In this document: piece after piece, positions 1-26,196 of the stretch
Layout of the letters: the number at the start of each line of letters is the position of its first letter
Numbering within the stretch: position 1 is the first letter of the stretch
IMG/VR virus record: IMGVR_UViG_2537561936_000020
Span: 1 to 27,186 of that record
Source of the DNA: a virus
Taxonomy: Duplodnaviria; Heunggongvirae; Uroviricota; Caudoviricetes
DNA: 27,186 bases
Direction: 5' to 3' (one strand)
Position numbers and translations under genes: made by a program
Notes under the pieces: model-generated
The model's database searches: none
Seen by the model: only the letters and a program-made list of their open reading frames with translations
Told to the model about the DNA's origin: nothing

Positions 1-630
1 AAGAAAATCGAAGACGCACAGCGTGCGGCCATTCTTCAGGACAAGGTTGCCTTGCTTCAGGGGGACCTGGCGAAAATCAATCCGCCGAAGCCTGTGGAAA
101 ATGGCAATGGCACCGGAGGTGATAAACCCAAAGACAACAAACCGCTCACAGACAGCAATACCGGTACACTACGCAGACTCAGCAAAATTGCTGATAACAC
201 AGGTAAGCTGGTTGATGAGACGAAAAAACGCATTGGCCCCGGCGATATTGTCTTTAAGAACCTGCCCCGCGCACTTGCTGTTCGTGGGGAGTGGCAGGAG
301 CGGAAGATTGCGCAGGTCGGTAAGCCTGCCCCCGCAATTAATATCACCCCCGTGGTCCCGGCTCCGCTGCCTCCGGCGCTGGTCCCTGTTGTTGCGGCCA
401 GCTCCCGCCCGGTGGCGGAGGCCATACGATCTCCAGTGGCATCAGTTCCTGTAACTTCCCGTAACCGGGAGCCTGTTGCCTCCGGATTTGGTGGTGAAAT
501 TCATGTTCATCTGCATAACGTTGTTACGCAGAATCCCCGCGAACTGGCGAAACTGGTCGGTGAAATGGTCAGGGCAGAAACGGAACGGCGCGCCCGTGCC
601 GGGCGTGGCAGTTTTTACGATAAAGATTGA
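1..630 (+). CDS. T: Tail tape measure protein, C-terminal part (5' end lies outside the window)
   Basis: Reading frame is open from base 1 and continuous with ORF 52..630. C-terminal sequence and its position directly upstream of a gpU homologue match P2 gpT from memory. Confidence 0.75.
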   Translation, partial: KKIEDAQRAAILQDKVALLQGDLAKINPPKPVENGNGTGGDKPKDNKPLTDSNTGTLRRLSKIADNTGKLVDETKKRIGPGDIVFKNLPRALAVRGEWQERKIAQVGKPAPAINITPVVPAPLPPALVPVVAASSRPVAEAIRSPVASVPVTSRNREPVASGFGGEIHVHLHNVVTQNPRELAKLVGEMVRAETERRARAGRGSFYDKD

Positions 631-636
631 GGAGTC

Positions 637-1131
637 ATGGCCATGATGATGATCTACGGCATGTTTGTTTTTGAGCTGCGCACACTGCCGCATCAGCAGT
701 TACAGCAAAACAAAAGCTGGCGGCATGTGAAAAATGAGCGCGTAAACCGCTCAGCAAGCTGGCAGTATATCGGTGCAGGTGATGATCGCATCGTGCTTTC
801 TGGCGTGCTTTATCCTGAAATTACAGGTGGCGAAGTGTCGCTTTCGCTGCTGACCACGCAGGCATATACAGGACGCCCCTGGCCTCTGATTGATGGTGTC
901 GGGCAGATTTACGGCATGTATGTACTGACTGAAACGAATACGACCCGCTCCGAGTTTGATCGCTACGGTAAGGCGAAAAAGATAGAATTTTCACTGACTC
1001 TTGAACGCTGTGATGAGGATTTGCGGGAGCGCCTGCAATCCTCATCGTTCAGTGATATGCTGTCCGGCTTCAAAGATAAGGTCACATCATCCCTTAACAG
1101 CGCGGCCAGCTCCGTTAAAGGGCTGTTTTGA
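637..1131 (+). CDS. U: Tail protein U (P2 gpU family)
   Basis: 164 aa. N-terminus (MMIYGMFVFELRTLPHQQLQ...WRH...GVLYPEITGG...WPLIDG) aligns with P2 gpU as recalled. Sits 6 bp after T. Confidence 0.85.
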   Translation: MAMMMIYGMFVFELRTLPHQQLQQNKSWRHVKNERVNRSASWQYIGAGDDRIVLSGVLYPEITGGEVSLSLLTTQAYTGRPWPLIDGVGQIYGMYVLTETNTTRSEFDRYGKAKKIEFSLTLERCDEDLRERLQSSSFSDMLSGFKDKVTSSLNSAASSVKGLF

Positions 1132-1138
1132 TTAACGC

Positions 1139-1168
1139 AAAACCGCTAATGGTCAGATTAGCGGTTTT
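1139..1168. terminator. Bidirectional hairpin between convergent U and invertase genes
   Basis: Perfect 12-bp inverted repeat AAAACCGCTAAT / ATTAGCGGTTTT with a 6-nt loop, followed by TTTTCATTTTCC on the + strand. It overlaps the invertase stop codon. Confidence 0.55.
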
Positions 1169-1757
1169 CATTTTCCTGAGTCTGCCTGGTTGTTTCTTCA
1201 GCCTGTATATCGCCTACAGGGTGATAACGATAAATCGTCGATATGCCGATGTCGTAAATGATCGCCAGTTGTTTCCTGTCATGACCGTTTTTAATCAGCC
1301 TCGCTATTTGCTCGTGTTGTTCTTTTGTCAACTTCGGGCGACGTCCGCCAATGCGTCCTTGTGCGCGTGCTGCTGCCAGCCCGGCCAGTGTACGCTCTAC
1401 AATTAATTCACGTTCCATTTCGGCTAAAGCCCCCATGACGTGAAAAAAGAAACGCCCCATGGGTGTTGATGTGTCAATGCTGTCCGTCAGACTACGGAAA
1501 TTAACACCTTTTTTCCGCAATTCCTCAATAAGCGTGATCAGGTGTTTCATACTTCTGCCCAGTCTGTCCAGCTTCCAGACAACCAGCGTATCTCCTTCTG
1601 ATAGCGTTCTGAGCAGTTTTTTCAATCCCGGTCTGGCTGATTTCGTTCCGCTGATTTTATCTTCAAAAATCAGTTCACATCCTGCGCAGTTCAGTGCATT
1701 GCGTTGTAAATCCGTGTTCTGGTCATTTGTTGACACACGAATATAGCCAATTTGCAT
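1158..1757 (-). CDS. Serine recombinase, DNA invertase of the Hin/Gin/Cin/Pin/Min family
   Basis: From internal Met: MQIGYIRVSTNDQNTDLQRNAL...LVVWKLDRLGRS...GRFFFHVMGALAEMERELIVERTLAGLAAARAQGR...IIYDIGISTIYR. Catalytic Ser in RVS and C-terminal HTH present. ORF-track start 1952 is an upstream extension; ATG at 1755-1757 checked in the DNA. Confidence 0.92.
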   Translation of the reverse strand: MQIGYIRVSTNDQNTDLQRNALNCAGCELIFEDKISGTKSARPGLKKLLRTLSEGDTLVVWKLDRLGRSMKHLITLIEELRKKGVNFRSLTDSIDTSTPMGRFFFHVMGALAEMERELIVERTLAGLAAARAQGRIGGRRPKLTKEQHEQIARLIKNGHDRKQLAIIYDIGISTIYRYHPVGDIQAEETTRQTQENENR

Positions 1758-1811
1758 AAAAAACATCCTTTTTGTTTCGTGAAAAATACATAGTTGGTAT
1801 AGGTAGGGATA

Positions 1812-1837
1812 AAGACGAAAACGTTGGTTTGGGGGAA
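1812..1837 (+). other. Candidate crossover site D (hix/gix-like, 12-2-12)
   Basis: AAGACGAAAACG-TT-GGTTTGGGGGAA. AAAAC(G/C)..GGTTT halves around a 2-bp core as in Hin-family sites. Lies exactly at the start of cassette 4. Confidence 0.6.
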
Positions 1838-2296
1838 GGCTCTGCGCTGCCCGTTGGTGTGCCCGTTCCATGGCCCTCAGCCACGCTGCCAACGGGGTGG
1901 CTGAAATGTAACGGCGCAGCATTTTCTTCTGAAATGTACCCCAATCTGGCAAAGGCCTACCCCACCAATAAATTACCGGATTTACGGGGCGAATTTATTC
2001 GCGGCTGGGATGACGGACGGGGCGTTGATAATGGGCGCAACCTACTGTCTGCACAGTCTGACGCTATTCAGAATATAGTTGGCACTTTTGGGCGTACTCA
2101 GCTTTTTAAAGATGCGCTTAATTCAGGACCATTTAGTCAAACTGACTCTATATTATCAGTAGGCTTACAACCAACTGAGATCATTGAAGGATATGGTGCT
2201 TCTGTATGGACATTCGACGCCTCTCGCTCAGTTCGCACAGCATCTGAAACACGCCCCCATAACATTGCGTTTAATTACATCGTAAGGGCAGCATGA
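1826..2296 (+). CDS. Silent alternative tail-fibre C-terminal cassette 4 (tail-collar-type domain)
   Basis: Shares the conserved start GEGSALPVGVPVPWP..GWLKCNGAAFSSEMYP..LPDLRGEFIRGWDDGRGVD and conserved end ETRPHNIAFNYIVRAA with the H C-terminus; central part is unique. No start codon of its own; ORF-track ATG at 1772 is probably fortuitous. Confidence 0.7.
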   Translation, partial: GLGEGSALPVGVPVPWPSATLPTGWLKCNGAAFSSEMYPNLAKAYPTNKLPDLRGEFIRGWDDGRGVDNGRNLLSAQSDAIQNIVGTFGRTQLFKDALNSGPFSQTDSILSVGLQPTEIIEGYGASVWTFDASRSVRTASETRPHNIAFNYIVRAA

Positions 2297-2315
2297 AAAC
2301 GTTGGTTTAGGAGAA
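2290..2315 (+). other. Candidate crossover site C (hix/gix-like)
   Basis: AGCATGAAAACG-TT-GGTTTAGGAGAA. Spans the stop of cassette 4 and the start of cassette 3. Confidence 0.6.
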
Positions 2316-2783
2316 GGCTCTGCACTGCCCGTTGGTGTGCCCGTTCCGTGGCCCTTAGCAACACCACCAACGGGCTGGCTGAAATGTAACGGTGCAGCAT
2401 TTTCTTCTGAAATGTACCCCAATCTGGCAAAAGCCTACCCCACCAATAAATTACCGGATTTACGGGGCGAATTTATTCGTGGCTGGGATGATGGGCGAGG
2501 AATTGATGCAGCACGCGCTTTATTGAGCATTCAAACCGGGATGTTGGAAAAACACCGCCATATTGTTGTAGCTAACGATGGATATGACACAAAGGATGAA
2601 TGGGAGTTGGCCACGATTTTCAAAAAAACATATACACAAGGCAGGGGGCTTGATGCCACAAATACAGGAGGGAGTTTGATTCCATCACCAACGCTTCATT
2701 CACGAGGAAGTATTGGTAACACAGGTGGTAGTGAAACCCGCCCCCGCAATATTGCATTTAACTATATCGTGAGGGCGGCTTAG
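2304..2783 (+). CDS. Silent alternative tail-fibre C-terminal cassette 3
   Basis: Same conserved N- and C-terminal blocks (…ETRPRNIAFNYIVRAA*) with a unique middle. Begins at the crossover core with no start codon of its own. Confidence 0.7.
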   Translation, partial: GLGEGSALPVGVPVPWPLATPPTGWLKCNGAAFSSEMYPNLAKAYPTNKLPDLRGEFIRGWDDGRGIDAARALLSIQTGMLEKHRHIVVANDGYDTKDEWELATIFKKTYTQGRGLDATNTGGSLIPSPTLHSRGSIGNTGGSETRPRNIAFNYIVRAA

Positions 2784-2789
2784 TTATAT

Positions 2790-3401
2790 TCAACTGGCTG
2801 ATGCCAGTGGTATTCCCGGCAAGTTGATATCTGGTGCCATGTTTATATCCATTGCGTTCAGCGCGTCTATATAATCCAGCACGGCATTAAGCCGGGTGGT
2901 TTCTGCCTGCGTCAACTTCCGCCCGGCCCGCAACTTCAACTGAATCAGACTTATGGAATCCATTGCCGCATCAGCCAGTGACTGGCGCTTGGTTTCTGCC
3001 GCTTCTACTGCGGCACTATGTTGTGCCTCAGTATCTGTCACCCATTTTTCACCATCCCATTTATCGTATGGTGTTGACGGGGAGATAGTGGTTGTATTTT
3101 TCGGGTAGTCACCTAGCGTCGTGATTTCTTCGGTGTTTCCCGTGTCAGTGTTATAGACGGTTTCACCACGATGATCTGGCGTATACTCCCATGAATTTAA
3201 ATTCTCCGAACGGCGGATAGCATAGCCCGCTTTATGTGCGCCCGGGGCATCTAAACAGGAATTTGCCGGAATACCGACACCCGCAGCAAGATATTCAGTT
3301 GATTCGGAAATATATTCCCGTGTCTCACCATCATAGTTATAAACGACGATGTTTCCTGCCTGTACGGCAATAAGGTCATCATTTAATATCGCGTTATTCA
3401 T
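2790..3401 (-). CDS. tfa: Tail fibre assembly chaperone (Tfa / P2 gpG-like)
   Basis: 203 aa. GVGIPANS...EYTPDHRGETVYNTDTG...YDKWDGEKWVTDTEAQ and a C-terminal helical region typical of lambda Tfa / P2 G family. ATG overlaps the TAA of cassette 2 (TAATG). Confidence 0.8.
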   Translation of the reverse strand: MNNAILNDDLIAVQAGNIVVYNYDGETREYISESTEYLAAGVGIPANSCLDAPGAHKAGYAIRRSENLNSWEYTPDHRGETVYNTDTGNTEEITTLGDYPKNTTTISPSTPYDKWDGEKWVTDTEAQHSAAVEAAETKRQSLADAAMDSISLIQLKLRAGRKLTQAETTRLNAVLDYIDALNAMDINMAPDINLPGIPLASAS

Positions 3402-3859
3402 TATGCGGTTCTCACAATATAATTGAAGGCAATATTGCGTGGGCGGGTTTCATTCCCCTCTGAGGATTCCGTTCTGTATTGACTGGTAAATCTACCGTTA
3501 ATTGCACCTTGCCGGACGGCGTTATCTGTCGACAACAGACTATCCCCGCCTTTGTCATTTGGCACCAGTACCGTGTTATCCCACGCATCCCATGACCGAA
3601 TATTATGATAATGACTTCCTGTTAACCACCCCTGCATGCTTAAGATGACCCTTCCGGCATCCACCCCGCGCCCATCATCCCAGCCACGGATAAATTCACC
3701 GCGTAAGTCTGGTAATTTATTGGTGGGGTAAGCCATTGCCAGTCTGGGATACATTTCAGAAGAAAATGCTGCGCCGTTACATTTCAGCCACCCCGTTGGC
3801 GGCGTGGCTGAGGGCCATGGAACAGGTACACCAACGGGCAGTGCAGAGCCTTCCCCCAA
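3401..3859 (-). CDS. Silent alternative tail-fibre C-terminal cassette 2
   Basis: Conserved N and C blocks (…NIAFNYIVRTA*). The ORF-track start is TTG within the crossover site; translationally coupled to tfa. Confidence 0.7.
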   Translation of the reverse strand: MGEGSALPVGVPVPWPSATPPTGWLKCNGAAFSSEMYPRLAMAYPTNKLPDLRGEFIRGWDDGRGVDAGRVILSMQGWLTGSHYHNIRSWDAWDNTVLVPNDKGGDSLLSTDNAVRQGAINGRFTSQYRTESSEGNETRPRNIAFNYIVRTA

Positions 3860-3876
3860 ACCAACGTTTTCATGCT
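3851..3876 (-). other. Candidate crossover site B (hix/gix-like)
   Basis: On the - strand AGCATGAAAACG-TT-GGTTTGGGGGAA, matching site D in its right half and site C in its left half. Overlaps the H stop codon. Confidence 0.6.
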
Positions 3877-5513
3877 GCTCTTACGATGTAATTAAACGCA
3901 ATGTTGCGTGGGCGGTTTTCGTTTGCAGTTGGAACAATTCTTGAAGCATCAAGGCCAATCACTTTTGGGTAAACAGTGCCATCTGTTCTTTCAGTCACCA
4001 TACTTCTGATTAAGGAGAAATAACTATTGTTCGTTGAGGGACTCAAAGGCACCACTGCCCCCTTAAATGAGTCTACTGATTCCCATATTGAATAATTTTC
4101 GGTGTTTACAGTCTTGAACTCACCATAGATATTACGTATGGCATCACCTTGAGCGGATAATATTGTTCTCCCCGCATCCACACCACGTCCGTCATCCCAA
4201 CCACGGATAAATTCACCGCGTAAATCCGGTAATTTATTGGTGGGATAAGCCTTTGCCAGTTTTGGGTACTTTTCAGAAGAAAATGCTGCTCCGTTGCATT
4301 TCAGCCATCCCGTTGGCGGTGTTTCTAAGGGCCACGGAACGGGTACACCAACGGGCAGTGCAGAGCCTTCCCCCAAACCAAGGTAATCAAGAACTCCCTG
4401 AGTGCTGGTTTTGCCAAGAATGGCACGTCCAACACTTGTCAACGCGGTTAACGCGGCACGATCTGCCCCTGTAAAATATGGGAGTTTATCTGCTGATGTA
4501 GCAAGCTCCGCCAGCGCCGTCAGGGTGGCATCCTTCGGTTGCTTACCCGCAAGCGCGTTAGTCATGGTGGTCGCAAAATTCGGGTCATTGCCCAGCGCCG
4601 CAGCCAGTTCGTTCAGCGTGTTCAGTGCATCAGGTGACGAGTCTACAAGTGCGGCAATCGCGGCCATAACGAAAGCCGTGCTTGCGATCTGGGTACTATT
4701 AGTCCCCTGTGCCGCTGTTGGTGTTGTTGGCGTTCCGGTCAGTGCCGGGCTGTTTAATGGTGCTTTCTTGTTCGTTTCATCCATTACCGCCTTAACAGCT
4801 TTTGGTGTCGCTGCCAGTGTTTCAGACGTGCTGTTCGTGGCGCTACTGAGCTGAACAATCCCTTTTTGTGTAGTGGTGGCGTTCTGGGCGGTATATTTCT
4901 CGTTAGCCAGGTCATATGCAGCCTTAACCGCTTTCGGTGTTGCGGCCAGTGTTTCTGATTCACTGTTAATTGCACTGCTTAACTGAGTAAAACCTTTTAC
5001 GGTCAGCGAGGCGTCTGGGTGACGTCGTGACTGTTCGTGCTCTGAGATTTTATCATCCACATATTTGCGGGTTGCCAGAACCACAGACGGGTCGATTTTC
5101 AGCGTGATGGCTTCGGTGTTCGTGACAACCAGAATCATGCGGATAGTCTGGGTGCGTCCACTGCCTTCCTGCAACTGCGGTTTGTACGTTTCCGGGCAGT
5201 TTGCCACCGCAATGAGTACACCTTCATCATCATAAAGACCAATCTCACGGATCCAGAATCCTCCCTCGTTTTCAGGGATGATTTGCTCCGCAATAATCTG
5301 GCTCTGATTGTTAGGGTCAACACTCAGAAGATTCAGCGGTGCAATGCGTTTCTGGTTAATCAGTTTTGTTTGTGCAGGGTCTGGTGTTGGTAACACACCA
5401 TTTGCATCACCAACGGCCATTTGCGTCAGATTCAGCTTACTGCCGAGCATCGTCGCGTTAGCCAGTCGTGCTGCGCCCTGATTAGTCAGAATGGCGTAGT
5501 ATTTCACTGTCAT
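3870..5513 (-). CDS. H: Tail fibre protein H: P2-like constant N-terminal region fused to invertible C-terminal cassette 1
   Basis: 547 aa. First ~390 aa match P2 gpH (…YVDDKISEHEQSRRHPDASLTVKGFTQLSSA…ATPKAVKAVMDETNKKAPLNSPALTGTPTTPTA…). C-terminal ~160 aa is the cassette-type domain ending NIAFNYIVRAA. Confidence 0.9.
   Translation of the reverse strand: MTVKYYAILTNQGAARLANATMLGSKLNLTQMAVGDANGVLPTPDPAQTKLINQKRIAPLNLLSVDPNNQSQIIAEQIIPENEGGFWIREIGLYDDEGVLIAVANCPETYKPQLQEGSGRTQTIRMILVVTNTEAITLKIDPSVVLATRKYVDDKISEHEQSRRHPDASLTVKGFTQLSSAINSESETLAATPKAVKAAYDLANEKYTAQNATTTQKGIVQLSSATNSTSETLAATPKAVKAVMDETNKKAPLNSPALTGTPTTPTAAQGTNSTQIASTAFVMAAIAALVDSSPDALNTLNELAAALGNDPNFATTMTNALAGKQPKDATLTALAELATSADKLPYFTGADRAALTALTSVGRAILGKTSTQGVLDYLGLGEGSALPVGVPVPWPLETPPTGWLKCNGAAFSSEKYPKLAKAYPTNKLPDLRGEFIRGWDDGRGVDAGRTILSAQGDAIRNIYGEFKTVNTENYSIWESVDSFKGAVVPLSPSTNNSYFSLIRSMVTERTDGTVYPKVIGLDASRIVPTANENRPRNIAFNYIVRAA
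4368..4393 (-). other. Candidate crossover site A inside H (constant/variable junction)
   Basis: On the - strand TTCTTGATTACC-TT-GGTTTGGGGGAA. Left half resembles hixL TTCTTGAAAACC; right half is identical to sites B and D. Confidence 0.6.
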
Positions 5514-6118
5514 GCGTTTACTCTCAGATTATCAATTAAATGAATGGCCGGGGCAGGGAAATAATCCCCTTCGACAATAATGGACTCCGGGGTGTAGGGA
5601 TAAACCGTCAGGGCATCGCCGTGATAGCATCCCGTACCAACGAAAATCTTTCCGTTCACACTCAGGCTGATCGCCAGCCCCGTCAGATGGCGACTTACTG
5701 GTTTTGCATCCGCAATAAGGCGCTCAAGTTCCTGATACATTTCATCGGTGATGCCCTGATCAAGTACTCCGACAACAATGCGAAATGTTCCTGGCTCCTC
5801 GTTGAGTTGCCACCACTCCTTTACTTCAATCAGGTAGCCGAGAGGCTCCACGGCTCTTCGCAGTGCGCTGATGGTCCCTTTGTGTCGGTGTATCAGCCAT
5901 GCATCACGAATTACCTGTCGCTTTGTCTCTTCCGGCCAGTTGCGATCCCAGCGGTCAACGGAAAACGCCCAGGCGAGATAAGGCAGCAGATGCACCGGGC
6001 AGGTGTCCGGCGACCACAGCGTGTTGAGGTCTACCGGAATGTCTGTAATGCGTGTTCCGACGGCTTCGGCACAACGCATGAAATTGCTGGCTGATGGTGG
6101 TAACAGTGAATTACTCAT
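5510..6118 (-). CDS. I: Baseplate assembly protein I
   Basis: From Met12 (MSNSLLPP…): LWSPDTCPVHLLPYLAWAFSVDRWD..W.E..KR.VIRDA matches P2 gpI. ATG at 6116-6118 checked. ORF-track start 6151 is an alternative. Confidence 0.85.
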   Translation of the reverse strand: MSNSLLPPSASNFMRCAEAVGTRITDIPVDLNTLWSPDTCPVHLLPYLAWAFSVDRWDRNWPEETKRQVIRDAWLIHRHKGTISALRRAVEPLGYLIEVKEWWQLNEEPGTFRIVVGVLDQGITDEMYQELERLIADAKPVSRHLTGLAISLSVNGKIFVGTGCYHGDALTVYPYTPESIIVEGDYFPAPAIHLIDNLRVNA

Positions 6119-7007
6119 TGCGTCCACCTTCGCTGATGGTGAATGACTCACAGCGCGCCGCCTGTATGTCGCTGATGGTCATATTCTGTGTGGGTTCGAT
6201 TATCTCCACGCGTTGCACACCGTGCACATGCAGTGCGGCAGCAATGGCGGACAACGCCACGTCCTGACCGATAAGCCCCTGCTCAGCCAGCCACTTCCTG
6301 AACGACGATTCAGCCGCGGCCAGAATAGGTTCGGATTCCGGGCCGGGGTAAAAGTACAGTTTTGCATTCAGCCGCCATGTCACGATTCTGGCGCTCTGTA
6401 CGGTCAGGCGGTCGGCCACCGGGCGGGTATCCTCTGCATTCAGAACGGCGCGAACGGTATTAAGCAACGCCTCCGTTGCTGTGCCGTCGCCTTCAGTGGA
6501 CAGAATGGAAACCGTCACATTTGCCGGAGACGGACTGATAGCCCGCGCATCACGCACCAGACCGCTGGCGCTGCGTGCAAAATACTCGTATGCACCTGAC
6601 GGGCCAGCAACACTCAGGCCGTCGTACGCCCGCTGCGCCCGCAGTCTCAGCGAGGTGTCGCTCTCCATCACCGCGTCGGTGGTATCCGTTGCCGGAGTGA
6701 TAACCAGGCGTTTTGTGTTCATATTGCCCGCGAGGTTGTCCAGGTCTGTCCCGGCGCTGTGGCTTAACATGCAGGCGCGTGCCCCCTCGTTAACCCGCTG
6801 GCGTAACAGCATTTCACGAAACGACATGGTTTGAGCGATAACGTTAAGGGGTTCCGATTCCAGCTCCAGCGCGGCGGAAACGGCTTCACGCTGTTCGGCG
6901 GGATAAGCCGCAATCATCATGGCCTTTGTGTCAGCCAGAATTGCCTCAAAGTCAGGCTCCGCGATGATGGCGGGTTCCGGTAACTGGGAAAGGTCAACGG
7001 CAGGCAT
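6111..7007 (-). CDS. J: Baseplate assembly protein J
   Basis: 298 aa. P2 gpJ-like sequence and position between W and I. Confidence 0.85.
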   Translation of the reverse strand: MPAVDLSQLPEPAIIAEPDFEAILADTKAMMIAAYPAEQREAVSAALELESEPLNVIAQTMSFREMLLRQRVNEGARACMLSHSAGTDLDNLAGNMNTKRLVITPATDTTDAVMESDTSLRLRAQRAYDGLSVAGPSGAYEYFARSASGLVRDARAISPSPANVTVSILSTEGDGTATEALLNTVRAVLNAEDTRPVADRLTVQSARIVTWRLNAKLYFYPGPESEPILAAAESSFRKWLAEQGLIGQDVALSAIAAALHVHGVQRVEIIEPTQNMTISDIQAARCESFTISEGGRNE

Positions 7008-7010
7008 GAT

Positions 7011-7361
7011 TTACTCCCTCAGCGTGATGGTTAATTCAACATTCTGCATGGTCTGCATGACAGTGCCCGACAGCGTCACCCCGGCGCGGCCTCCCGCTTT
7101 CCAGACAACGTCGATGGCATCCAGGGCAATGCGGGGTTCCCATCGTGTCAGCGCAATCACGGCAGCACTCATGCATTGCAGACGCGTGGTGTTATTCATG
7201 GGTTCGTCAATCAAATCAGGCACAAGGCTGCCATATTCCCGTCGCATAACCCGGCTTGCCAGTGGGGTGGTCAGGATGTCCCTGACTGACTGTTTCAGGT
7301 GCTCCATATCGTTCAGGTTTCCCGTCCCGTCCGGATTCATTCCTGTGTAGCGGGTTGTCAC
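7011..7361 (-). CDS. W: Baseplate protein W (gp25-like)
   Basis: 116 aa. …LKQSVRDILTTPLASRVMRREYGSLVPDLIDEP… matches the P2 gpW family. Confidence 0.85.
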   Translation of the reverse strand: MTTRYTGMNPDGTGNLNDMEHLKQSVRDILTTPLASRVMRREYGSLVPDLIDEPMNNTTRLQCMSAAVIALTRWEPRIALDAIDVVWKAGGRAGVTLSGTVMQTMQNVELTITLRE

Positions 7362-7939
7362 TGCGGGCCTCCTGTCGAATCGCTGCCGCCTTTCACGCCA
7401 CCGTGTTTATGCGTATGCACGGTAATGCCGTTTGAGGTGAAATCGCCGCCGCTGTGCGTGATATTGCCGCTCATCTTTCCTCCTTTTGTGACGTCAAGCG
7501 TCGCCGTTCTCAGAAGGTTTGTGCATTCCACGACGGGCGTGTCCAGTGTCACGCTGACGGATGCCTGTAAAGTGGCCGTTTTCATGCCGCTGGCGCTCAG
7601 TGCGCCTGCGTCCGCGTCGTAGCGGAACACCGCGCCGTCCGGCGCGCTGATCACGATTTCTTTCAGGCTTTTGCCGGGTGCCGGATTGGCATCACTCCAC
7701 AGGCTGCCAATTATCATGGCGGTTTCCGGGTTGCCGCCAATGCAGGCAATTACCACCTGTTCGCCTGGTGATGGCGGCAGCCACACATTGAAGGCTCCCG
7801 CGCGCGTGGTGTTCCAGCGCAACCAGCCTGTCTCCAGTTCGCCGCTGCGAACGCGCACGCGCCAGGACTTCTCATCAACTTCAGAGATGATCCCGGTGCG
7901 GATGATATTGCTCAGCAGTCGCATGAGTTCTGCGCTCAC
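7358..7939 (-). CDS. V: Baseplate spike protein V
   Basis: 193 aa. …IIGSLWSDANPAP…SGNITHSGGDFTSNGITVHTHKH… matches P2 gpV. Confidence 0.85.
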   Translation of the reverse strand: MSAELMRLLSNIIRTGIISEVDEKSWRVRVRSGELETGWLRWNTTRAGAFNVWLPPSPGEQVVIACIGGNPETAMIIGSLWSDANPAPGKSLKEIVISAPDGAVFRYDADAGALSASGMKTATLQASVSVTLDTPVVECTNLLRTATLDVTKGGKMSGNITHSGGDFTSNGITVHTHKHGGVKGGSDSTGGPQ

Positions 7940-8580
7940 CGTACAGCCTCCGCAATCCGGCCCAGCACCGTGTTATAAATCAGGCGCTCATCTGCCTGGC
8001 TGATACCCAACAGCTCACGTACCGGGTAATCGGTGAAAATGCCCGGCGCAACCTGATCGCGCTCACCGAACTGATGAACGCGGGCAATACGTGCGGCCAC
8101 GCCGCTGTAACCCACCGTCACACCGGAAGTATCCGCACGGGCTTTCAGGTAGCGGGCGGTGCGCAGTTTTACGAACATGGGGACGCGCTTTGTGCTGTCC
8201 TGGTTGATGCGCCGGGTGCGTATTTCCAGAAAGCGGTCGATGTCATCCCGGTAAAACGTGCGGATGTTGTTTTTATCCTCATCCCACCCGGTGATGGTTC
8301 GCCCGTATTTCCCCGTGTCGTGATGCCAGTTTTTCAGCGTGCGTGCTTCGTTATTCCAGATAAAGCGAATGCGTTCCTGTATCCGGGTTACGCGGCGTCT
8401 GCGTGGTGTCCATGCGGTCCCGTCCGGCGCTTTCTGTGACCGGATACGTGCCTGCTGGGCGCGACGTAAATCCTGTGCCAGCTTTCTGGCGATGTTATTG
8501 ATGGCCTGCTGATTCAGGCTGTCGCGGATGGACTCAAAGGTTTCATCCACGCGGGTGAATGCCTTATCCATCGCTTTCAC
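7936..8580 (-). CDS. S: Tail completion / virion morphogenesis protein (gpS-like)
   Basis: Position between R and V with overlapping stop/start codons; basic protein. Longer than P2 S, so the N-terminal boundary is uncertain. Confidence 0.6.
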   Translation of the reverse strand: MKAMDKAFTRVDETFESIRDSLNQQAINNIARKLAQDLRRAQQARIRSQKAPDGTAWTPRRRRVTRIQERIRFIWNNEARTLKNWHHDTGKYGRTITGWDEDKNNIRTFYRDDIDRFLEIRTRRINQDSTKRVPMFVKLRTARYLKARADTSGVTVGYSGVAARIARVHQFGERDQVAPGIFTDYPVRELLGISQADERLIYNTVLGRIAEAVR

Positions 8581-9031
8581 CCCACGTCACATCCTGGAAT
8601 ACATGCGACCAGTCGCCTTCGGAAGATGGCAGGCGGGGTTTTGGCTCCGGCAGGTGTTCTGCCTGCGGTGTGCCCTGACTGCTGCGCGTGATGCGAACGC
8701 GTTCCCGCAGGGGGAGCGTAAACAGGAGATCGGCGCTGTCATCGTCATTGATAACGGCGGAGAATTTGATGTCCTGATTACGCTCAGGGTTGAGCAACAA
8801 CTGTGGCTGATTTTCGGATAACCACGCCAGCAGCGGCAGCGTGAGGTCGTCCAGCTCCCCGGCGTAATCCATGACAAACATCACCATCTGATAGCGGTAA
8901 ACAAACGAGGGCGTTTCTCCGGTCGTTTCAATGTTGCCGCTCTCCACGAAAATGGTGAATTTTTCCGGGTTGGCCTGACACCATCGGCATGAACGGGTCA
9001 TGGCTTCACGCAGGGAATCAGTTTTCAGCAT
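8564..9031 (-). CDS. R: Tail completion protein R
   Basis: 155 aa, P2 gpR-like, located immediately after the lysis cassette. Confidence 0.7.
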   Translation of the reverse strand: MLKTDSLREAMTRSCRWCQANPEKFTIFVESGNIETTGETPSFVYRYQMVMFVMDYAGELDDLTLPLLAWLSENQPQLLLNPERNQDIKFSAVINDDDSADLLFTLPLRERVRITRSSQGTPQAEHLPEPKPRLPSSEGDWSHVFQDVTWGESDG

Positions 9032-9338
9032 GGTTGTTGTCCTCGTTGTTCAGTCGTTGCAGTCTGCGCTGTTCCAGTAATTCAATGGCCCGTTTATCCG
9101 CGTTACAGGTTTCCAGTGCATCCAGAAGGCGGTCGCCCCATATACCGAGATTTCCCCATGTGGGAGTATCAGGGAAGGGGGGAGGCATTACTGGTATGGT
9201 CAGCGTCTGCGGTATAAGCCGGACTGACGGCGCTGGCCGTGGCGCGTTCTGCGTGCCTGCGCAACCTGTCAGTAAAACGAGCGTCAGGCAAAGCGTGGGC
9301 GCATTCATCTTTTGCAATATCGTTGCGTAGCTGTTCAC
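9018..9338 (-). CDS. lysC: Outer-membrane lipoprotein spanin (o-spanin, LysC/Rz1-like)
   Basis: Signal peptide with lipobox LLTGC and a proline-rich mature part. Starts inside lysB in another frame and extends past it, as in P2 lysB/lysC. Alternative start at Met11. Confidence 0.7.
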   Translation of the reverse strand: MNSYATILQKMNAPTLCLTLVLLTGCAGTQNAPRPAPSVRLIPQTLTIPVMPPPFPDTPTWGNLGIWGDRLLDALETCNADKRAIELLEQRRLQRLNNEDNNHAEN

Positions 9339-9576
9339 GTCTGGCCTCTCCGTCCTGATTTCGCTGTTGATTTTCCACGCGGAGTTGCGCCAGCACCTGC
9401 TGCATATCCTGTACCCCGGTGCTGATGATATTCAGGGTGTCGACGGTACTTTTCAGGGCGCTGGCCTGCGCTTCGTTTCTGGCGTTCTCCCGGCCCAGCG
9501 ACCACGACAGACGCATGGATGTTCCCCATCCAGCAATCAGAAGGAAAGCGACGCCCAGCGTGGGCCAGAGCTTCAT
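9169..9576 (-). CDS. lysB: Inner-membrane spanin (i-spanin, LysB/Rz-like)
   Basis: Start taken at MKLWPTLGVAFLLIAGW (N-terminal TM), forming an ATGA overlap with the endolysin stop; coiled-coil-like remainder. ORF-track upstream extension rejected. Confidence 0.7.
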   Translation of the reverse strand: MKLWPTLGVAFLLIAGWGTSMRLSWSLGRENARNEAQASALKSTVDTLNIISTGVQDMQQVLAQLRVENQQRNQDGEARREQLRNDIAKDECAHALPDARFTDRLRRHAERATASAVSPAYTADADHTSNASPLP

Positions 9577-9965
9577 GCCGGATAGGCTCCGTGTGGTAAC
9601 TGAAAATGCGGTCCGTCTTTCAGGGTCTTCCAGTCGCCGCCCCATTCCACCGGAATATTCAGTTCCCGGCTGGCCTGTCTGAATGCTGCTGCGATTTTTT
9701 CGTACAGCGGCCATTCCCATGACACCTGGTTGCCGATATAAGCCACAACATCCACGGCATGTCCCGTAAGGTGGCGGCTGTTCATGGTCTGGCTCTTACC
9801 TGTGGCCACAAGTTGCTTCTGGCGGTAACGGCTGCGCAACCCTTCTGTGATACCAAAATCCACTTCCGAAATTTCCAGTGCCCGTCGGGTCACTTTCACC
9901 AGATCAGGATTTACGCTCTGCAAATTCTTTTCGCTCCGGCTGCTGAATTTAAATGTGTTGCTCAT
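9573..9965 (-). CDS. Endolysin, peptidase M15-type (L-alanyl-D-glutamate peptidase family)
   Basis: 130 aa. SRHLTGHAVDV … DGPHFQL metal-binding motifs typical of M15 endolysins. ATGA overlap with the holin stop. Confidence 0.8.
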   Translation of the reverse strand: MSNTFKFSSRSEKNLQSVNPDLVKVTRRALEISEVDFGITEGLRSRYRQKQLVATGKSQTMNSRHLTGHAVDVVAYIGNQVSWEWPLYEKIAAAFRQASRELNIPVEWGGDWKTLKDGPHFQLPHGAYPA

Positions 9966-10285
9966 TCGTCCTTCTCCTTCACCCTGCGATTAAAGGCCGC
10001 AATAACCTTGTCGCGTGCTTTCTCTGCACCCATAAAACCGATTGATGCGCCGATAAACGTCACGGCATCTTCAGGAAACCCGAAGAAGCGCAACGACCCG
10101 GCCACGGCCATGGCAAGAACGCCGCACGCCAGCGATCCCGTTACGGTCTGAACCAGTGTTCGTCCGTCATAAAGACTCATCAGCGCGGAAATGCTGACTG
10201 CCGCGCCTACTGCATACACCGTTGGCAGGTGGTCAAAGAGCCACGCAATAACCTGCTCTGTGATCCCTGTTTGAATGGTGCTCAC
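9962..10285 (-). CDS. Putative holin
   Basis: About 107 aa with two or three hydrophobic segments (VIAWLFDHLPTVYAVGAAVSISALMSL; LACGVLAMAVAGSLRFFGF) and a charged C-terminus. Candidate GTG start at 10283-10285 has GGGGGAG 5-11 nt upstream. The ORF-track start 10504 overlaps gene X and is rejected. Confidence 0.55.
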   Translation of the reverse strand: MSTIQTGITEQVIAWLFDHLPTVYAVGAAVSISALMSLYDGRTLVQTVTGSLACGVLAMAVAGSLRFFGFPEDAVTFIGASIGFMGAEKARDKVIAAFNRRVKEKDE

Positions 10286-10287
10286 TG

Positions 10288-10488
10288 CTACTCCCCCCAC
10301 AACTGAATCATTTCTCGTTTCTTCTTCTCCGGCTCCGGCATCTCCACCTCCTGCCCGGCGTCCAGAAATACCTGCTGACAGAGTCCGGGGTTGGCATCCA
10401 GCACCTTTTCGGTGACGCCCTGCGTCGTGCCGTAGTACCGGAAACAGAGCGAATCCACGGTGTCGCCTTCCAGTGCCTTCACTTTCAT
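10288..10488 (-). CDS. X: Tail protein X (LysM-like)
   Basis: From Met12: MKVKALEGDTVDSLCFRYYGTTQGVTEKVLDANPGL… resembles P2 gpX (MKTFALQGDTLDAICVRYYGRTEGVVETVLAANPGL). 67 aa. Confidence 0.85.
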   Translation of the reverse strand: MKVKALEGDTVDSLCFRYYGTTQGVTEKVLDANPGLCQQVFLDAGQEVEMPEPEKKKREMIQLWGE

Positions 10489-10991
10489 CAGCACAACTCC
10501 GCAAAGATTCGCGGGCGGCACAGAATGTCAGAGATGGCCCAGCTCACATCGCGCCACAAATCCGATGTCTGTATATCCAGTGCGTCCGCCCGGCGGTCGC
10601 CCTTATCCGTTGTATCCGCATCGCGGTAACGCTCCAGAATCAGGGCGCGTGTGGCGGTGTAAACCGCATTGCGCCAGTGCCAGAGATTGACGCTTTCTCC
10701 GTTAATTACGGGTGCCGGAACATCGGCCAGCGTCTGATGGCCAGCCGCCTGCTGTTCCTGCTGCCACGCTTCCAGCTCGCGGGTAACGTGTGCCACGGCC
10801 CCGGTGGCGGTATGCAGCAGGCGGGAGGTGGTCACGCGCCCCGGCAGTCGTACCGCCAGACGCAGCTCACGCAGCACAATATCCGGCCAGAATGCACCTG
10901 CTGAAATACGGGTATCACCATCATCGGTATCGGTGATGTCGTCCTCTGCGGGTCCGGGGTTGGTTCTGGCAACCATACTCATGGGGTTCAC
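10488..10991 (-). CDS. L: Head completion protein L
   Basis: 167 aa, P2 gpL-like, positioned between M and X. Confidence 0.75.
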   Translation of the reverse strand: MNPMSMVARTNPGPAEDDITDTDDGDTRISAGAFWPDIVLRELRLAVRLPGRVTTSRLLHTATGAVAHVTRELEAWQQEQQAAGHQTLADVPAPVINGESVNLWHWRNAVYTATRALILERYRDADTTDKGDRRADALDIQTSDLWRDVSWAISDILCRPRIFAELC

Positions 10992-11003
10992 TCCTGAAAA
11001 AAT

Positions 11004-11068
11004 CGGGCGGTGGGTGCGCGGTGTAAACGGTCACGGAGTCAAACCGGAACACCGCGCACGCCGCCCGC
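11004..11068. other. Long GC-rich imperfect hairpin in the M-L intergenic gap
   Basis: CGGGCGGTGGGTGCGCGGTGT … ACACCGCGCACGCCGCCCG, arms about 19 bp with a 25-nt loop. Confidence 0.4.
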
Positions 11069-11083
11069 TGACGGGGTCAGTCG

Positions 11084-11884
11084 TTAACCGCGCTTCGCCT
11101 TCTGCGTCGCGGTGGTTTTTCGTGTTGCAGGCTTCCGCGTTGTCTTTTTACTTTTGCTGCTTTCGTCCTGCGCCTGCGGTGTGCTGGCATCTTCTGGTGC
11201 GGCTGCGGAATCGGCTTTTTTCAGGGCGCGGGAAAGGGTTGCAATCTCGCGTTTCACACCTGCGTTCGGGTTCAGGTGCATTGCTTCGCGCAGCAGCTTC
11301 AGTGACAGTGCCATGCTGTCCGCATCGCTCAGGCCACGGCGGGCAAAGGCGCACGCCTTGCATAATTTGGCGCGCACTTCGTCCGGCATGTCCTGGTCGG
11401 TGACAATCTCCCGGAGGGTATCCAGTGGTTCGATAAAGGCGGACAAATCCGCGTCGGCATCCGTCCCGGCCTGCGTCAGTACCGGGTTGCAGATTTCTTC
11501 GGTCAGCACTGTGGCAGCAGTACGGCCAAAGTTATCCGGCATAATGAGGTTATGACGGACCACATACGCACCAATACGCAACGCCAGCGGAAGATCGCCG
11601 CAGTCAATTGCCCACACCATCAGCGTGGCAATCACTTCATCCTGCTGCCCGCCGTCAGCCTCCAGCGTTCCCTCAATCCAGCCGGAAAAGTCCGGCAACA
11701 ACTCTTTTTTGATGGCGGCTTTCGCGCTTCTGGCCTGTACGCCCTTAAGCCGGGCCTGTGCCAGACGCAGACGATACAGCACCTCTTCATGCGCGGTACG
11801 CGCGGCGTGGTCCACGCCTTCATTCGCCCGGCCTGCGCGCTGTGCCATCACGTTCTGCCAGTGTTGCTGTGCAGGAGTAATCAT
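11084..11884 (-). CDS. M: Terminase endonuclease (small) subunit M
   Basis: 266 aa. …DMPDEVRAKL…LNPNAGVKREI… and a basic lysine-rich tail match P2 gpM. Confidence 0.85.
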   Translation of the reverse strand: MITPAQQHWQNVMAQRAGRANEGVDHAARTAHEEVLYRLRLAQARLKGVQARSAKAAIKKELLPDFSGWIEGTLEADGGQQDEVIATLMVWAIDCGDLPLALRIGAYVVRHNLIMPDNFGRTAATVLTEEICNPVLTQAGTDADADLSAFIEPLDTLREIVTDQDMPDEVRAKLCKACAFARRGLSDADSMALSLKLLREAMHLNPNAGVKREIATLSRALKKADSAAAPEDASTPQAQDESSKSKKTTRKPATRKTTATQKAKRG

Positions 11885-17909: not shown

Positions 17910-18221
17910 TTACTCAGGAAATAACGCCCGGATATTCCCAGCCATCTGGCTGGTTATCTTAGCCACTGGTGCAGACTGTGCTTCAAACTTTTTTGAGCTG
18001 ATTTGTGTCACAGGTAACATCTCATCATCAGCCCATGCGGCCAGTCGGTAAGCCTCTGCCGGATTCGTCTTCAGAAGTGCCAGCCCGGCCAGAAAAGCCA
18101 CGCGTTGGCCGCTTTTGCGGGCTTCTGGTGTAAGGCTGTCCAGCCAGGCGCATGCTTCTCCTTCGTTCTTGACGGCGGCGGGCTTCAGATAGAAACTTAT
18201 CCGTCTGGTTGGTGTCGTCAT
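17910..18221 (-). CDS. parR: ParR-like centromere-binding protein
   Basis: 103 aa from MTTPTRRISFYLKPAAV…AWLDSLTPEARKSGQRVAFLAGLAL, recalling the R1 ParR N-terminus. AAGGAG lies 8 nt upstream, inside the parM 3' end. ORF-track start 18356 rejected. Confidence 0.7.
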   Translation of the reverse strand: MTTPTRRISFYLKPAAVKNEGEACAWLDSLTPEARKSGQRVAFLAGLALLKTNPAEAYRLAAWADDEMLPVTQISSKKFEAQSAPVAKITSQMAGNIRALFPE

Positions 18222-18225
18222 TGGT

Positions 18226-19185
18226 TTACTCCTTGTCCATTGCGTACAGCCCATTAACCAGAGCAAACTGTGGCACCCCGTCCGCGATGAAAGTCGCATT
18301 AACTCCGCAGGCTTCGCGGATAGCGGGTGCCACAATCTCCGCCCCGCCACCGACAACCATCACCCGCCCGTAACCCGAAAAAACCGCCAGCGCGCGGATC
18401 ACGCGTTGTTTCAGTGTTTCTTCCTTTTCACGAATAACCGCCATCAGGCTGGCGTAATGCGCGTCATTGTGGATGTGCTGGCGCAGCCAGGCTTCATCAT
18501 GGCGATGTTCGATAATGGTATTGGCGATGTGGTGACTGGTGCGCATACCGTTAGTGGCCATCACCGACAGTACGGCATCGGCCATAAGAGAAACGCCTAC
18601 GTGTGGATCGCAAAACACCTGGCTGATACCTGCCAGTTGCCCCTGAACCTTTGCCACATCCAGCGTGGTTCCGCCCAAATCCACAATCAGCAGGGATTCA
18701 AACGGACTCATGTCAGCCAGTGCTTTAAAGCCAGCCGGAATGGATTCAGGCATAACCCGTACGTTACGGATAGTGAATGCTTCGCCGTTCTGGTACTCCA
18801 CCGGGCGCATGACGTTCGCTTTTTTGCGGTTGATGTTGGCCATGTCCGGCTGTGCGTTTGTGTCGAAATATTCGCTCAGTGGCAGGGTAACAACCACATC
18901 CACTTCCTGTGGCGTGATGTCTGATTTGACCAGCGCGTGATGAATGGCAATGACATTCACATCGCTGTACTGGTATTGCGTGTCGGTCGTCTGGACAAAG
19001 CGATCGCTGACCGGATCAAAACCATAGCGCACGCCATCAAGCATGTAGTTAGCAGGCTGCGAGCCACCGAACGGCGCAGACCATTCCGACTTGAAGCTGT
19101 TCGGGCTGATGGCGTTGCGGCGTTCGCCGTTCTCAGTCCATGCCAGCTTGATGTTGGTGGAGCCGTCGTCGATGTAAATTTTCAT
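18226..19185 (-). CDS. parM: ParM/StbA-like actin-type segregation ATPase
   Basis: 319 aa. MKIYIDDGSTNIKLAW…ISPNSFK…QYSDVNVIAIHHAL…EVDVVVTLPL…VVGGGAEI, closely following the R1 ParM pattern as recalled. Confidence 0.85.
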   Translation of the reverse strand: MKIYIDDGSTNIKLAWTENGERRNAISPNSFKSEWSAPFGGSQPANYMLDGVRYGFDPVSDRFVQTTDTQYQYSDVNVIAIHHALVKSDITPQEVDVVVTLPLSEYFDTNAQPDMANINRKKANVMRPVEYQNGEAFTIRNVRVMPESIPAGFKALADMSPFESLLIVDLGGTTLDVAKVQGQLAGISQVFCDPHVGVSLMADAVLSVMATNGMRTSHHIANTIIEHRHDEAWLRQHIHNDAHYASLMAVIREKEETLKQRVIRALAVFSGYGRVMVVGGGAEIVAPAIREACGVNATFIADGVPQFALVNGLYAMDKE

Positions 19186-19215: not shown

Positions 19216-19328
19216 GTTTACGGGATTCTGAAATCCCGTTTTTGCCTGTTTTGTGCGCGCTTCATATATCGCTGCGCGTTTTTTGCTCATTTACGGGATT
19301 CGTGAGTCCCGTTTCTGTCTGTTTTTTG
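19216..19328. repeat. Candidate parC centromere/operator: two ~40-bp direct repeats each containing a 20-bp palindrome
   Basis: ACGGGATTCTGAAATCCCGT (19220-19239) and ACGGGATTCGTGAGTCCCGT (19293-19312), 73 bp apart, each followed by TTT(T/C)TG(C/T)CTGTTTT(G/T)TG. Lies directly upstream of parM. Confidence 0.6.
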
Positions 19329-22087: not shown

Positions 22088-22473
22088 GGCTGGTATCCCG
22101 TCACGCGCTGCCACTCCTGCGAGAAGATGGCGGAAAGGCGGTTAAATTCAGCGGTGTATTCACTCAGCGAGGCACACCCGCCAGCAGTGCGATGCGCCAG
22201 CATTGCCGCGAATACGGAGGCCGGGGAGTCGTAATACGCCAGCAGTGATTCGCCGTGTGGTGTCAGGCAGTGCAACGCCAGCCCGTGTGGTGTGAAGTCC
22301 ACGCGGTAGCAGTCGTCTACTGTGAAATAAAGGGTGTCCGCATTCTCCGGTTTTGTGGTGCGTGCTCTGTTGTCACGACCACGGATGTAGAGATCAAATA
22401 ATCCCTGAAGAATGGGAGCCAGACGGGTGTCCTGTGTGCGCACCCATCTTGTGAAGTCATGAGCGTCAATCAT
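22084..22473 (-). CDS. Hypothetical early protein
   Basis: 129 aa ORF, translationally coupled to A. No recognisable motif. Confidence 0.55.
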   Translation of the reverse strand: MIDAHDFTRWVRTQDTRLAPILQGLFDLYIRGRDNRARTTKPENADTLYFTVDDCYRVDFTPHGLALHCLTPHGESLLAYYDSPASVFAAMLAHRTAGGCASLSEYTAEFNRLSAIFSQEWQRVTGYQP

Positions 22474-26130: not shown

Positions 26131-26196
26131 CCCTTTATTATTCTTACGTTTTACAAACTGGAAATGTCTTTCCTCGTTTCACCGGAGGGCTTGCCA

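Follow-up and report, generated by a model that had tools for sequence, protein, structure and literature searches.

A 27,186-nt stretch of DNA (hereafter the window) carries a region, between its invertase gene and the tail-fibre gene H, which very likely works as a multiple DNA-inversion switch of the Min type and thereby determines which receptor-binding tip the tail fibre of a P2-like (Peduoviridae) prophage of E. coli carries. Four crossover sites, three segments between them (D, C-tfa-B and A), 12 reachable isomers and four in-frame fusions were found, which is the composition of a multiple-inversion system of the Min type. A switch of this kind has already been described, and experiments published in 2014 had shown inversion at a version of this prophage locus with three sites (PMC4272514); a new four-site member leaves the knowledge of the mechanism unchanged. 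The locus is a clean four-tip example, the identical element of which is present in two isomeric states in public assemblies.

According to the proposed mechanism, the invertase would recombine any two of the four sites that lie in inverted orientation, cutting at the central TT/AA, and because s4 sits in frame inside H, the inversions that involve this site would swap the last ~170 codons of the gene. Permuting and flipping the D, C-tfa-B and A segments would generate the 12 isomers and, through them, four fibre proteins, H-A, H-B, H-C and H-D. These presumably differ in their receptor specificity, and a lysogen population would therefore release virions of several host ranges, a form of bet-hedging in which tip switching would change the host range. 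With multi-cassette fibre switches, one prophage hedges over several receptors, and such loci are also a natural source of exchangeable receptor-binding modules.

Crossover sites, tip cassettes and invertase

Features of the inversion locus in the window (site sequences are written 12-2-12 in the cassette orientation)
Feature	Position	Strand	Details
Terminator-like hairpin	1139-1168		between the convergent U and invertase genes; 12-bp stem, then TTTTCATTTT on the + strand
Serine DNA invertase, Pin/Min/Gin (Din) family	1158-1757	-	199 aa, ORF intact
Putative recombinational enhancer	1673-1736	-	two G-N13-C 15-mers, 1722-1736 and 1673-1687, at the 5' end of the invertase gene
s1	1812-1837	+	AAGACGAAAACG TT GGTTTGGGGGAA; core 1824-1825; invertase-side flank / cassette D
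Tip cassette D	1824-2296	+	core to stop codon; Collar domain; silent in the isomer of the window
s2	2290-2315	+	AGCATGAAAACG TT GGTTTAGGAGAA; core 2302-2303; D 3' end / cassette C
Tip cassette C	2302-2783	+	Collar domain; silent in the isomer of the window
tfa, tail-fibre assembly (chaperone) gene	2790-3401	-	203 aa; Pfam Caudo_TAP 2.6e-31; PHROG tail fiber assembly 2.7e-90
Tip cassette B	3401-3864	-	Collar domain; silent here; co-oriented with H, tfa directly after
s3	3851-3876	-	AGCATGAAAACG TT GGTTTGGGGGAA; core 3863-3864; A 3' end / cassette B
Tip cassette A	3870-4381	-	currently fused to H, part of the 547-aa H ORF
s4	4368-4393	-	TTCTTGATTACC TT GGTTTGGGGGAA; core 4380-4381; constant/variable junction inside H
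H, constant N-terminal part	4382-5513	-	P2-type tail fibre; Pfam Phage_tail_fib 1.6e-62 and Phage_fiber_2

Allowing at most two mismatches, four matches to TTGGTTTGGGGGAAGG were found against 0.31 expected, and at least four matches occurred in none of 100 shuffles. The original prediction, which had placed 26-bp sites of the 12-2-12 design with a TT/AA core at 1812, 2290, 3851 and 4368, was confirmed for all four, two on each strand, and the TT core is identical in all of them when read in the cassette orientation. Their left halves end in AAAC(G/C) and their right halves begin with GGTTT, a pattern also seen in the gix and e14 sites of the Mu and K-12 records. Although there is no homology between the left flank of s1 and that of s4, the half-site pattern is kept in both. 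The stop codons of D and of the H-A fusion fall in the left halves of s2 and s3, respectively. Because the homology of s4 to the other sites begins exactly at its core, s4 is the constant/variable junction of H, as had been proposed for the site inside this gene.

The Pfam Collar domain (PF07484) was found in all four cassettes with values from 9e-15 to 3e-14. Their alignment gave ~215-225 nt of common 5' homology (29-35 differences in 225 nt, 85-87% identity) and ~50 nt of a common 3' end (ETRPRNIAFNYIVRAA) around a centre that is unique to each, which agrees well with the ~200 bp of 5' homology and the conserved 3' end that had been anticipated. A variable insert lies between an N-terminal collar motif and a last strand that are both conserved, which is the organisation of collar tips. 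Residues 383-545 of H matched the short tail fibre in PDB 9cuy (E 7e-24) and the T4 gp37 tip (2xgf), and the predicted H-B, H-C and H-D fusions are all in frame. For annotation purposes, coding sequences labelled 'phage tail protein' beside such invertases are silent 3' cassettes.

The Hin-family invertase that had been recognised beside the cassettes proved to be an intact Pin/Min-type serine invertase, in which the Resolvase (1.7e-51) and HTH_7 (1.4e-12) domains of Pfam were found. An N-terminal catalytic domain with the active-site serine (Ser9, within IRVSTNDQ) is followed by a C-terminal helix-turn-helix, as in the small serine recombinases, and the Gin structures 4m6f and 3uj3 are full-length alignment partners (E 1e-90). 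The enzyme is 99% identical to that of E2348/69, 94% to the invertase of a Min-type array on a P1-like plasmid, 82% to PinE of e14 and 72% to Gin of Mu. A putative enhancer was identified by its positional homology to gin: two 15-mers, which correspond to nt 22-36 and 71-85 of the invertase gene, occupy positions equal to those of their Mu gin counterparts with one mismatch each. They are 49 bp apart, compared with the 48 bp of the usual enhancer spacing. Near-identical 15-mers occur at this place in pinE, P88 and the P1-like plasmid as well, where the coding sequence is conserved anyway. In Hin, the residues K47, R/K48, K/R51, Q151, R154 and L155 make the Fis/enhancer contacts and are specific to the invertases that depend on Fis and the enhancer (PMC3798978). 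The invertase of the window has K46/K47/R50 and Q150/R153/L154 (its numbering is that of Hin minus 1), and, as judged from these residues, it very probably requires Fis and an enhancer. Elsewhere in the window, a PADLOC scan of the unannotated ORFs gave no defence matches.

Natural isomers and the point of exchange

A breadth-first enumeration with four sites gave 12 reachable isomers, in which every one of the four tips can join H; a reference assembly records only one of these 12 states. The isomer formula yields four states for three sites, as published, and 240 for six sites, which are also the number of isomers and the number of sites of the p15B Min system. Each of the three alternative fusions was found uninterrupted in complete genomes of E. 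coli, with 97.5-100% identity: H-C in GF66.2 (889 of 889 nt, 100.0%), H-D in JNE082640 (99.8%) and H-B in KOr024, E2348/69 and D72 (97.5-97.7%). The flanking segments that were mapped in GF66.2 (U, the invertase, the constant part of H, and I) are each 100% identical to those of the window, and the left flank of s1 is joined there to the 5' end of cassette A. All of the mapped segments of L091 (GCA_040026805.1), including the invertase gene and the constant part of H, are also 100% identical to the window, in a different order, and two in-silico inversions at the cores reproduced L091 with 0 mismatches over positions 1-6491 of the window. Similarly, two assemblies of E2348/69 interconvert by one in-silico core inversion (5500 of 5500 nt identical). 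With 12 isomers enumerated, all fusions in frame and natural isomers at hand, the proposal that serial inversions could put any of the four tips on H holds well. The identical elements in other assemblies suggest that inversion also takes place in the source strain.

A rival reading is that the array in the source strain is a frozen relic, with the enzyme or enhancer inactive or the prophage defective, so that the switch no longer turns. Relative to the experimentally active enzyme of E2348/69, the invertase carries two residue changes (K82E and E197K), and residues that are otherwise invariant are replaced in cassette D (P to L, and R to H in RPRN), both of which would fit such a relic. However, GF66.2 and L091, both in other isomeric states, have an invertase gene 100% identical to that of the window, the reading frame of the enzyme is uninterrupted and encodes the catalytic Ser9 as well as the DNA-binding domain, the cores are identical in four of four sites and D-type tips are fused to H in several genomes, all of which makes a relic very improbable and argues for a switch that still turns.

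The junctions also bear on where the exchange occurs. Because the repeat arms differ (29-35 of 225 nt) and the first difference lies 6-39 nt past the core in the isomer comparisons, the crossovers are confined next to the core; thus, the comparison of assemblies alone places the exchange no farther than a few bases to a few tens of bases from the core dinucleotide. It had been considered that the 26-bp motifs might only be part of a longer duplication. This applies in so far as longer repeats include every right half-site and, for s2 and s3, the left half too, but the junctions place the exchange point at the core dinucleotide despite these repeats. Moreover, RecA-dependent recombination is strongly impeded at 13-15% divergence. 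Homologous recombination by RecA between the inverted heads of the cassettes (~215 bp), in place of the invertase acting at the 26-bp sites, is a very improbable source of the isomers across genomes: the sites are indeed embedded in inverted repeats of ~215-225 nt with 85-87% identity, and Goldberg et al. describe those of E2348/69 simply as 215-bp inverted repeats with 92% homology (PMC4272514), but a core-placed exchange gives the other isomer with 0 mismatches in three independent comparisons, a crossover elsewhere in arms with 17-35 differences would leave mismatches, so that only the 6-39 nt beside the core are allowed, and the left flanks of s1 and s4 share the half-site pattern with no homology between them.

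The single tfa gene and its orientation

No second copy of tfa was found within the window, and three of the four tips are without a tfa of their own. The start of the gene overlaps the stop codon of cassette B (TAATG), and no solved structures related to Tfa by sequence were found. The single tfa in the central segment presumably serves as a chaperone common to all of the tips, acting through their conserved C-terminal motif; the alignment of H with PDB 9cuy takes in such a motif, ENRPxNIA. In Salmonella phage MET_P1_103_31, an A-type tip is followed directly by tfa.

The enumeration showed that tfa is antisense to H in six of the 12 isomers, all H-C isomers among them. Of the E2348/69 cells, ~90% are in an isomer state with tfa antisense to H. 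A sigma-70 promoter scan of positions 500-5700 gave seven matches against 7.0 expected, none of which was suited to tfa or the silent cassettes. As a candidate for the flipped tfa, an Ogr/Delta-type late promoter (TGT-N12-ACA) at 1773-1790, in the gap between the invertase gene and s1, was considered and rejected: the window contains five such motifs against 6.6 expected, 111 against 125 expected when one mismatch is allowed, and the divergent O/P late-promoter region has one-mismatch copies only, with no perfect copy.

It is conceivable, if rather unlikely, that the switch governs more than the choice of tip, via the orientation of tfa within the invertible central segment. In the tfa-antisense isomers, folding of some collar tips may not need Tfa, in which case the array would mix chaperone-dependent and chaperone-independent tips. 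Alternatively, a promoter that escaped recognition, or transcription running on from the convergent T-U late operon, may supply tfa; such read-through, if true, would also produce RNA antisense to the invertase gene during lytic growth. If neither Tfa-free folding nor another supply of tfa applies, half of the isomers would be fibre-defective, and the array would be an ON/OFF switch of infectivity as well.

Relation to known inversion systems

A close relative is the three-site 'shufflon' of EPEC E2348/69, which Goldberg et al. described in a P2-like prophage of this strain (2014, Genome Med) and for which paired-end deep sequencing and PCR revealed four coexisting variants (NC_011601.1, 1891695/1892127-1893703; PMC4272514). 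The region of NC_011601.1 with the published variants is the ortholog of the window locus. Both have the gene order T, U and then, on the opposite strand, the invertase, cassettes, tfa, H, I and J; the site sequences are equal, and tfa, the C-type and B-type cassettes and the constant part of H are 97-99% identical. In contrast, E2348/69 has three sites, three cassettes and four variants compared with four, four and 12 isomers in the window, and it carries a cassette X where the window has A and D.

The Min multiple-inversion system of plasmid p15B was reportedly described by Iida in 1990 and by Sandmeier, Iida and Arber in 1992. A P1-like plasmid, pEH09-18-41_2, was used in our comparison with Min as a proxy for p15B (X62121). 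For a P1-like plasmid, an invertase 98.5% identical to Min is reported (PMC6906374). The array of pEH09-18-41_2, with the invertase that is 94% identical to that of the window, also consists of collar-type cassettes, with single cassettes flanking a central two-headed segment with one tfa, and its sites are equal to those of the window (AAAACG TT GGTTTxGGGGAA). The nucleotide identity to the window is ~87% from the invertase gene (1214) to the s4 core (4384), where the homology ends. Up to the crossover site, P2-like prophages therefore have their invertase-cassette-tfa module in common with P1-like plasmids. The plasmid array has nine sites in the stretch that was read, with a tenth inferred at the S junction, compared with four in the window, and it serves a P1-type S on a plasmid prophage, whereas the window has a P2-type H on an integrated prophage. 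Four sites, 12 isomers and this shared architecture bear out the earlier view that the locus resembles the p15B Min rather than a two-state Mu G segment.

The two-state switches (Mu G/Gin, P1 C/Cin, e14 P/Pin, P88 and those of other Peduoviridae) use the same enzyme family, with 72-86% identity, and a site that lies in frame at the constant/variable junction of the fibre gene. Their sites have the same 26-bp design, namely TTATCCAAAACC TC GGTTTACAGGAA for Mu gix and CTCTCGAAAACC TT GGTTTGGGAGAA and TTTTCATAAACG TT GGTTTGGGAGAA for e14. Unlike the locus of the window, they have two sites and two tips, each with its own tfa (S-U / U'-S'). A cross-species survey with the invertase suggests that most of the representative genomes are two-site and a few (L011, L026 and L038) three-site, the count being qualitative only, as it came from a loose regular expression one base out of register. 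The R64-type shufflons follow a similar logic, with multiple inversions that shuffle C-terminal cassettes onto one constant gene; they differ in their Rci tyrosine recombinase, their sfx sites and their target, the conjugative pilus adhesin (PilV tips), and the relation of the locus to them is one of analogy, not of membership.

Layout of sites, cassettes and invertase

The P2-like (Peduoviridae) prophage in the window carries a Min-type tail-fibre switch with four sites and 12 isomers, and the original prediction was correct in both its observation and its interpretation. This kind of switch is already known and experimentally validated, and the window element adds another member. The window opens contig APYJ01000168.1 (GCA_000357145.2) and covers its initial 27,186 nt; window positions 1-11,513 match the reverse complement of locus L092 exactly. 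The tail genes R, S, V, W, J, I and H lie on the minus strand, while the end of the tape-measure gene T, followed by U, lies on the plus strand and is convergent on H; the invertible region was placed between U and H. The start of the source contig falls within T.

Coordinates of the invertible region (site sequences in the orientation of the headed cassette)
Feature	Position	Strand	Remark
Serine recombinase	1158-1757	-	intact, 199 aa
s1	1812-1837	+	AAGACGAAAACG TT GGTTTGGGGGAA
Cassette D	1824-2296	+	collar-domain
s2	2290-2315	+	AGCATGAAAACG TT GGTTTAGGAGAA
Cassette C	2302-2783	+	collar-domain
tfa (tail-fibre assembly)	2790-3401	-	inside central invertible segment
Cassette B	3401-3864	-	collar-domain
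s3	3851-3876	-	AGCATGAAAACG TT GGTTTGGGGGAA
Cassette A	3870-4381	-	collar; present 3' end of H ORF
H ORF	3870-5513	-	547 aa
s4	4368-4393	-	TTCTTGATTACC TT GGTTTGGGGGAA

The four crossover sites were found at the predicted starts (1812, 2290, 3851 and 4368); a 16-mer derived from them occurs four times at ≤2 mismatches against 0.31 expected, and none of 100 shuffles reached four. The same design is seen in Mu gix (TTATCCAAAACC TC GGTTTACAGGAA, from the Mu record) and in the K-12 e14 sites (CTCTCGAAAACC TT GGTTTGGGAGAA and TTTTCATAAACG TT GGTTTGGGAGAA, from the e14 record). Because the D stop codon lies in the left half of s2 and the H-A stop codon in the left half of s3, each single cassette terminates inside the next site.

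Alignment of the four cassettes bore out the layout that had been claimed for them, i.e., shared 5' homology, a conserved 3' end and a unique centre. A stretch of about 215-225 nt downstream of the core is common to all four (29-35 differences per pair), as are about 50 nt at the 3' ends, which encode ETRP(R/H)NIAFNYIVR(A/T)A, while each centre is unique. This arrangement fits the Pfam Collar domain, which matches all of the cassettes, and the short tail fibre PDB 9cuy, which aligns with H residues 383-545 (E 7e-24) over both conserved ends with gaps in the centre. The variable centre is thus an insert within a conserved collar fold, where the receptor-binding surface would be expected. Cassette D has TLPTGW for TPPTGW and RPHN for RPRN at positions that are invariant in the other three; several genomes nevertheless carry D-type tips fused to H.

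The invertase is 99% identical to the enzyme of the E2348/69 prophage, 94% to that of the P1-like plasmid pEH09-18-41_2, 86% to that of P88, 82% to e14 PinE and 72% to Mu Gin, and Gin crystal structures align with it over its full length. Ser9 is present, as are the helix-B basic residues K46, K47 and R50 and the helix-1 residues Q150, R153 and L154, which, according to a study of Hin, are conserved only in Fis/enhancer-dependent invertases (PMC3798978). Nucleotides 22-36 and 71-85 of the gene are two G-N13-C 15-mers, and near-identical 15-mers occur at the corresponding place in gin, pinE and the genes of the P88 and P1-like enzymes; the pair is likely an enhancer, by homology rather than by demonstration. 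A hairpin at 1139-1168, with a 12-bp stem and T-runs on both strands, separates U from the invertase gene convergent with it; it is probably a bidirectional terminator that would limit T-U operon read-through into the invertible region.

Natural isomers and the number of states

Public assemblies answer the key question of whether the locus inverts. Each predicted junction was built from 400 nt of constant H sequence running through the left half of s4, then the core, then one of cassettes B, C and D. The three fusions all keep the reading frame, and complete E. coli genomes contain each of them in one uninterrupted piece: H-C in GF66.2 (100.0% over 889 nt) and, at 98-99.5%, in further genomes, H-D at 99.8% in JNE082640 and CH4793, and H-B at 97.5-97.7% in KOr024, E2348/69 and D72. 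In GF66.2, U, the invertase gene, the H constant part and I are each 100% identical to the window, while the locus is a different isomer with six sites. A second assembly (GCA_040026805.1), obtained by an exact-protein look-up of H, is 100% identical in every mapped segment but has the order H-A, D, B, tfa, C facing back, invertase. Two successive in-silico inversions with endpoints at the cores (1824..3864, then 1824..3386) turned the window into this arrangement with 0 mismatches over window 1-6491, whereas the unmodified window gave 1,315 mismatches in a comparison of 11,513 bases. Similarly, the E2348/69 assemblies CP059840.2 and NC_011601.1 are one inversion apart: after inversion at the cores 5,500/5,500 bases are identical, whereas without it the flanking alignments have 17 mismatches each, in the repeat arms.

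Isomers could also arise if the 215-nt repeats underwent general homologous recombination. However, the repeat arms differ at many positions, the first difference lying 6-39 nt past the core, and the isomers match with zero mismatches; crossovers are therefore confined to a short interval containing the core, which argues against this explanation.

In a P2-like prophage of EPEC E2348/69, Goldberg et al. (2014; PMC4272514) described a 'shufflon' that has three inverted repeats and of which four variants coexist; they confirmed it by PCR and quantified it by deep sequencing. Their Table S1 lists NC_011601.1 1891695-1893703 and 1892127-1893703 and a 215-bp repeat starting ACCTTGGTTTGGGGGAAGG. These coordinates correspond to the orthologous locus (H, cassettes, tfa, cassette, invertase WP_001165545.1, U, T), and the site spacings mapped here, 2,001 and 1,562 bp, agree with the published 2,008 and 1,576 (PMC4272514). 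In many draft genomes of other Enterobacterales, the contig breaks off no more than about 200 bp from the invertase gene start (L016, L017, L020-L023, L029, L033, L034, L037, L040, L041 and L044). Assemblies usually break in this way at invertible repeats, and the breaks are an indirect sign that orientations were mixed in those cultures.

The region was modelled as a central two-headed segment (C-tfa-B) plus two single cassettes. When inversions between sites of opposite orientation were enumerated breadth-first, 12 isomers were reached (H-A 4, H-D 4, H-B 2, H-C 2), so that serial inversions can fuse any of the four tips to H, as anticipated. For n single cassettes the count is 2 x (n+1)!, i.e., 4 for three sites, the number published for E2348/69, 12 for four and 240 for six, the last being also the number for the p15B Min system. 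Among near-identical E. coli prophages, the number of sites runs between two, in D72, and six, in GF66.2.

Related modules and the orientation of tfa

The classical two-state layout, with a separate tfa for each tip, is found in relatives such as P88, phage 500465-2, Mu and e14, whereas the window has four sites and one tfa; no second copy was found in the window. The P1-like plasmid pEH09-18-41_2 carries the same module expanded, in the order invertase gene, four cassettes, one tfa, five cassettes and the S gene across the record origin; like the window, it has a single tfa, among nine visible cassettes. Nine identical-type sites occur in the stretch read, with a tenth inferred at the S junction. 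Window 1214, inside the invertase gene, to 4384 is about 87% identical in nucleotides to plasmid positions 3501-9114, and the homology ends at the s4 core. The module is thus common to P2-like prophages and P1-like plasmids, with the crossover site as its boundary, which suggests that this site also bounds module exchange between unrelated phages.

The tfa gene is co-oriented with H in six of the 12 isomers and antisense in the other six, including every H-C isomer. GF66.2 and NC_011601.1 are in tfa-antisense states. The NC_011601.1 orientation is the 'forward' one of PMC4272514, hence tfa-antisense, and 'forward' accounts for about 90% of E2348/69 cells (Table S1, PMC4272514). In Salmonella phage MET_P1_103_31, an A-type tip (93% aa identity) is directly followed by tfa (75% identity), which indicates that these tips are normally partnered with this chaperone family; the C-terminal motif common to the tips could plausibly be a shared docking site for it. 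Flipped tfa is co-directional with the convergent T-U operon, but the terminator-like hairpin comes after U, and promoter searches, among them a sigma-70 scan of 500-5700, found none to serve it. A perfect TGT-N12-ACA, the dyad of Ogr-activated P2 late promoters, lies between the invertase start and s1 (1773-1790, +); it was set aside as evidence of a late promoter, because such matches are no commoner in the window than chance predicts and the divergent O/P late-promoter region holds no perfect one.

Other genes of the prophage

The genes identified in the window include the integrase (26164-27186), a Cox-like protein, replication protein gpA, a ParM/StbB pair, and portal, terminase, scaffold, major capsid and lysis genes. 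The gpA-type protein (19262-22114, -) has 950 aa, considerably longer than P2 gpA (about 760 aa), with the Phage_GPA domain at residues 194-513 and no Pfam match in its extra N- and C-terminal regions. Although the element otherwise resembles an integrating, integrase-bearing P2-like prophage, it encodes a ParM/StbA actin-like segregation ATPase (319 aa, Pfam E 1e-80) together with a StbB-like plasmid stability protein at 17910-19185 (-).
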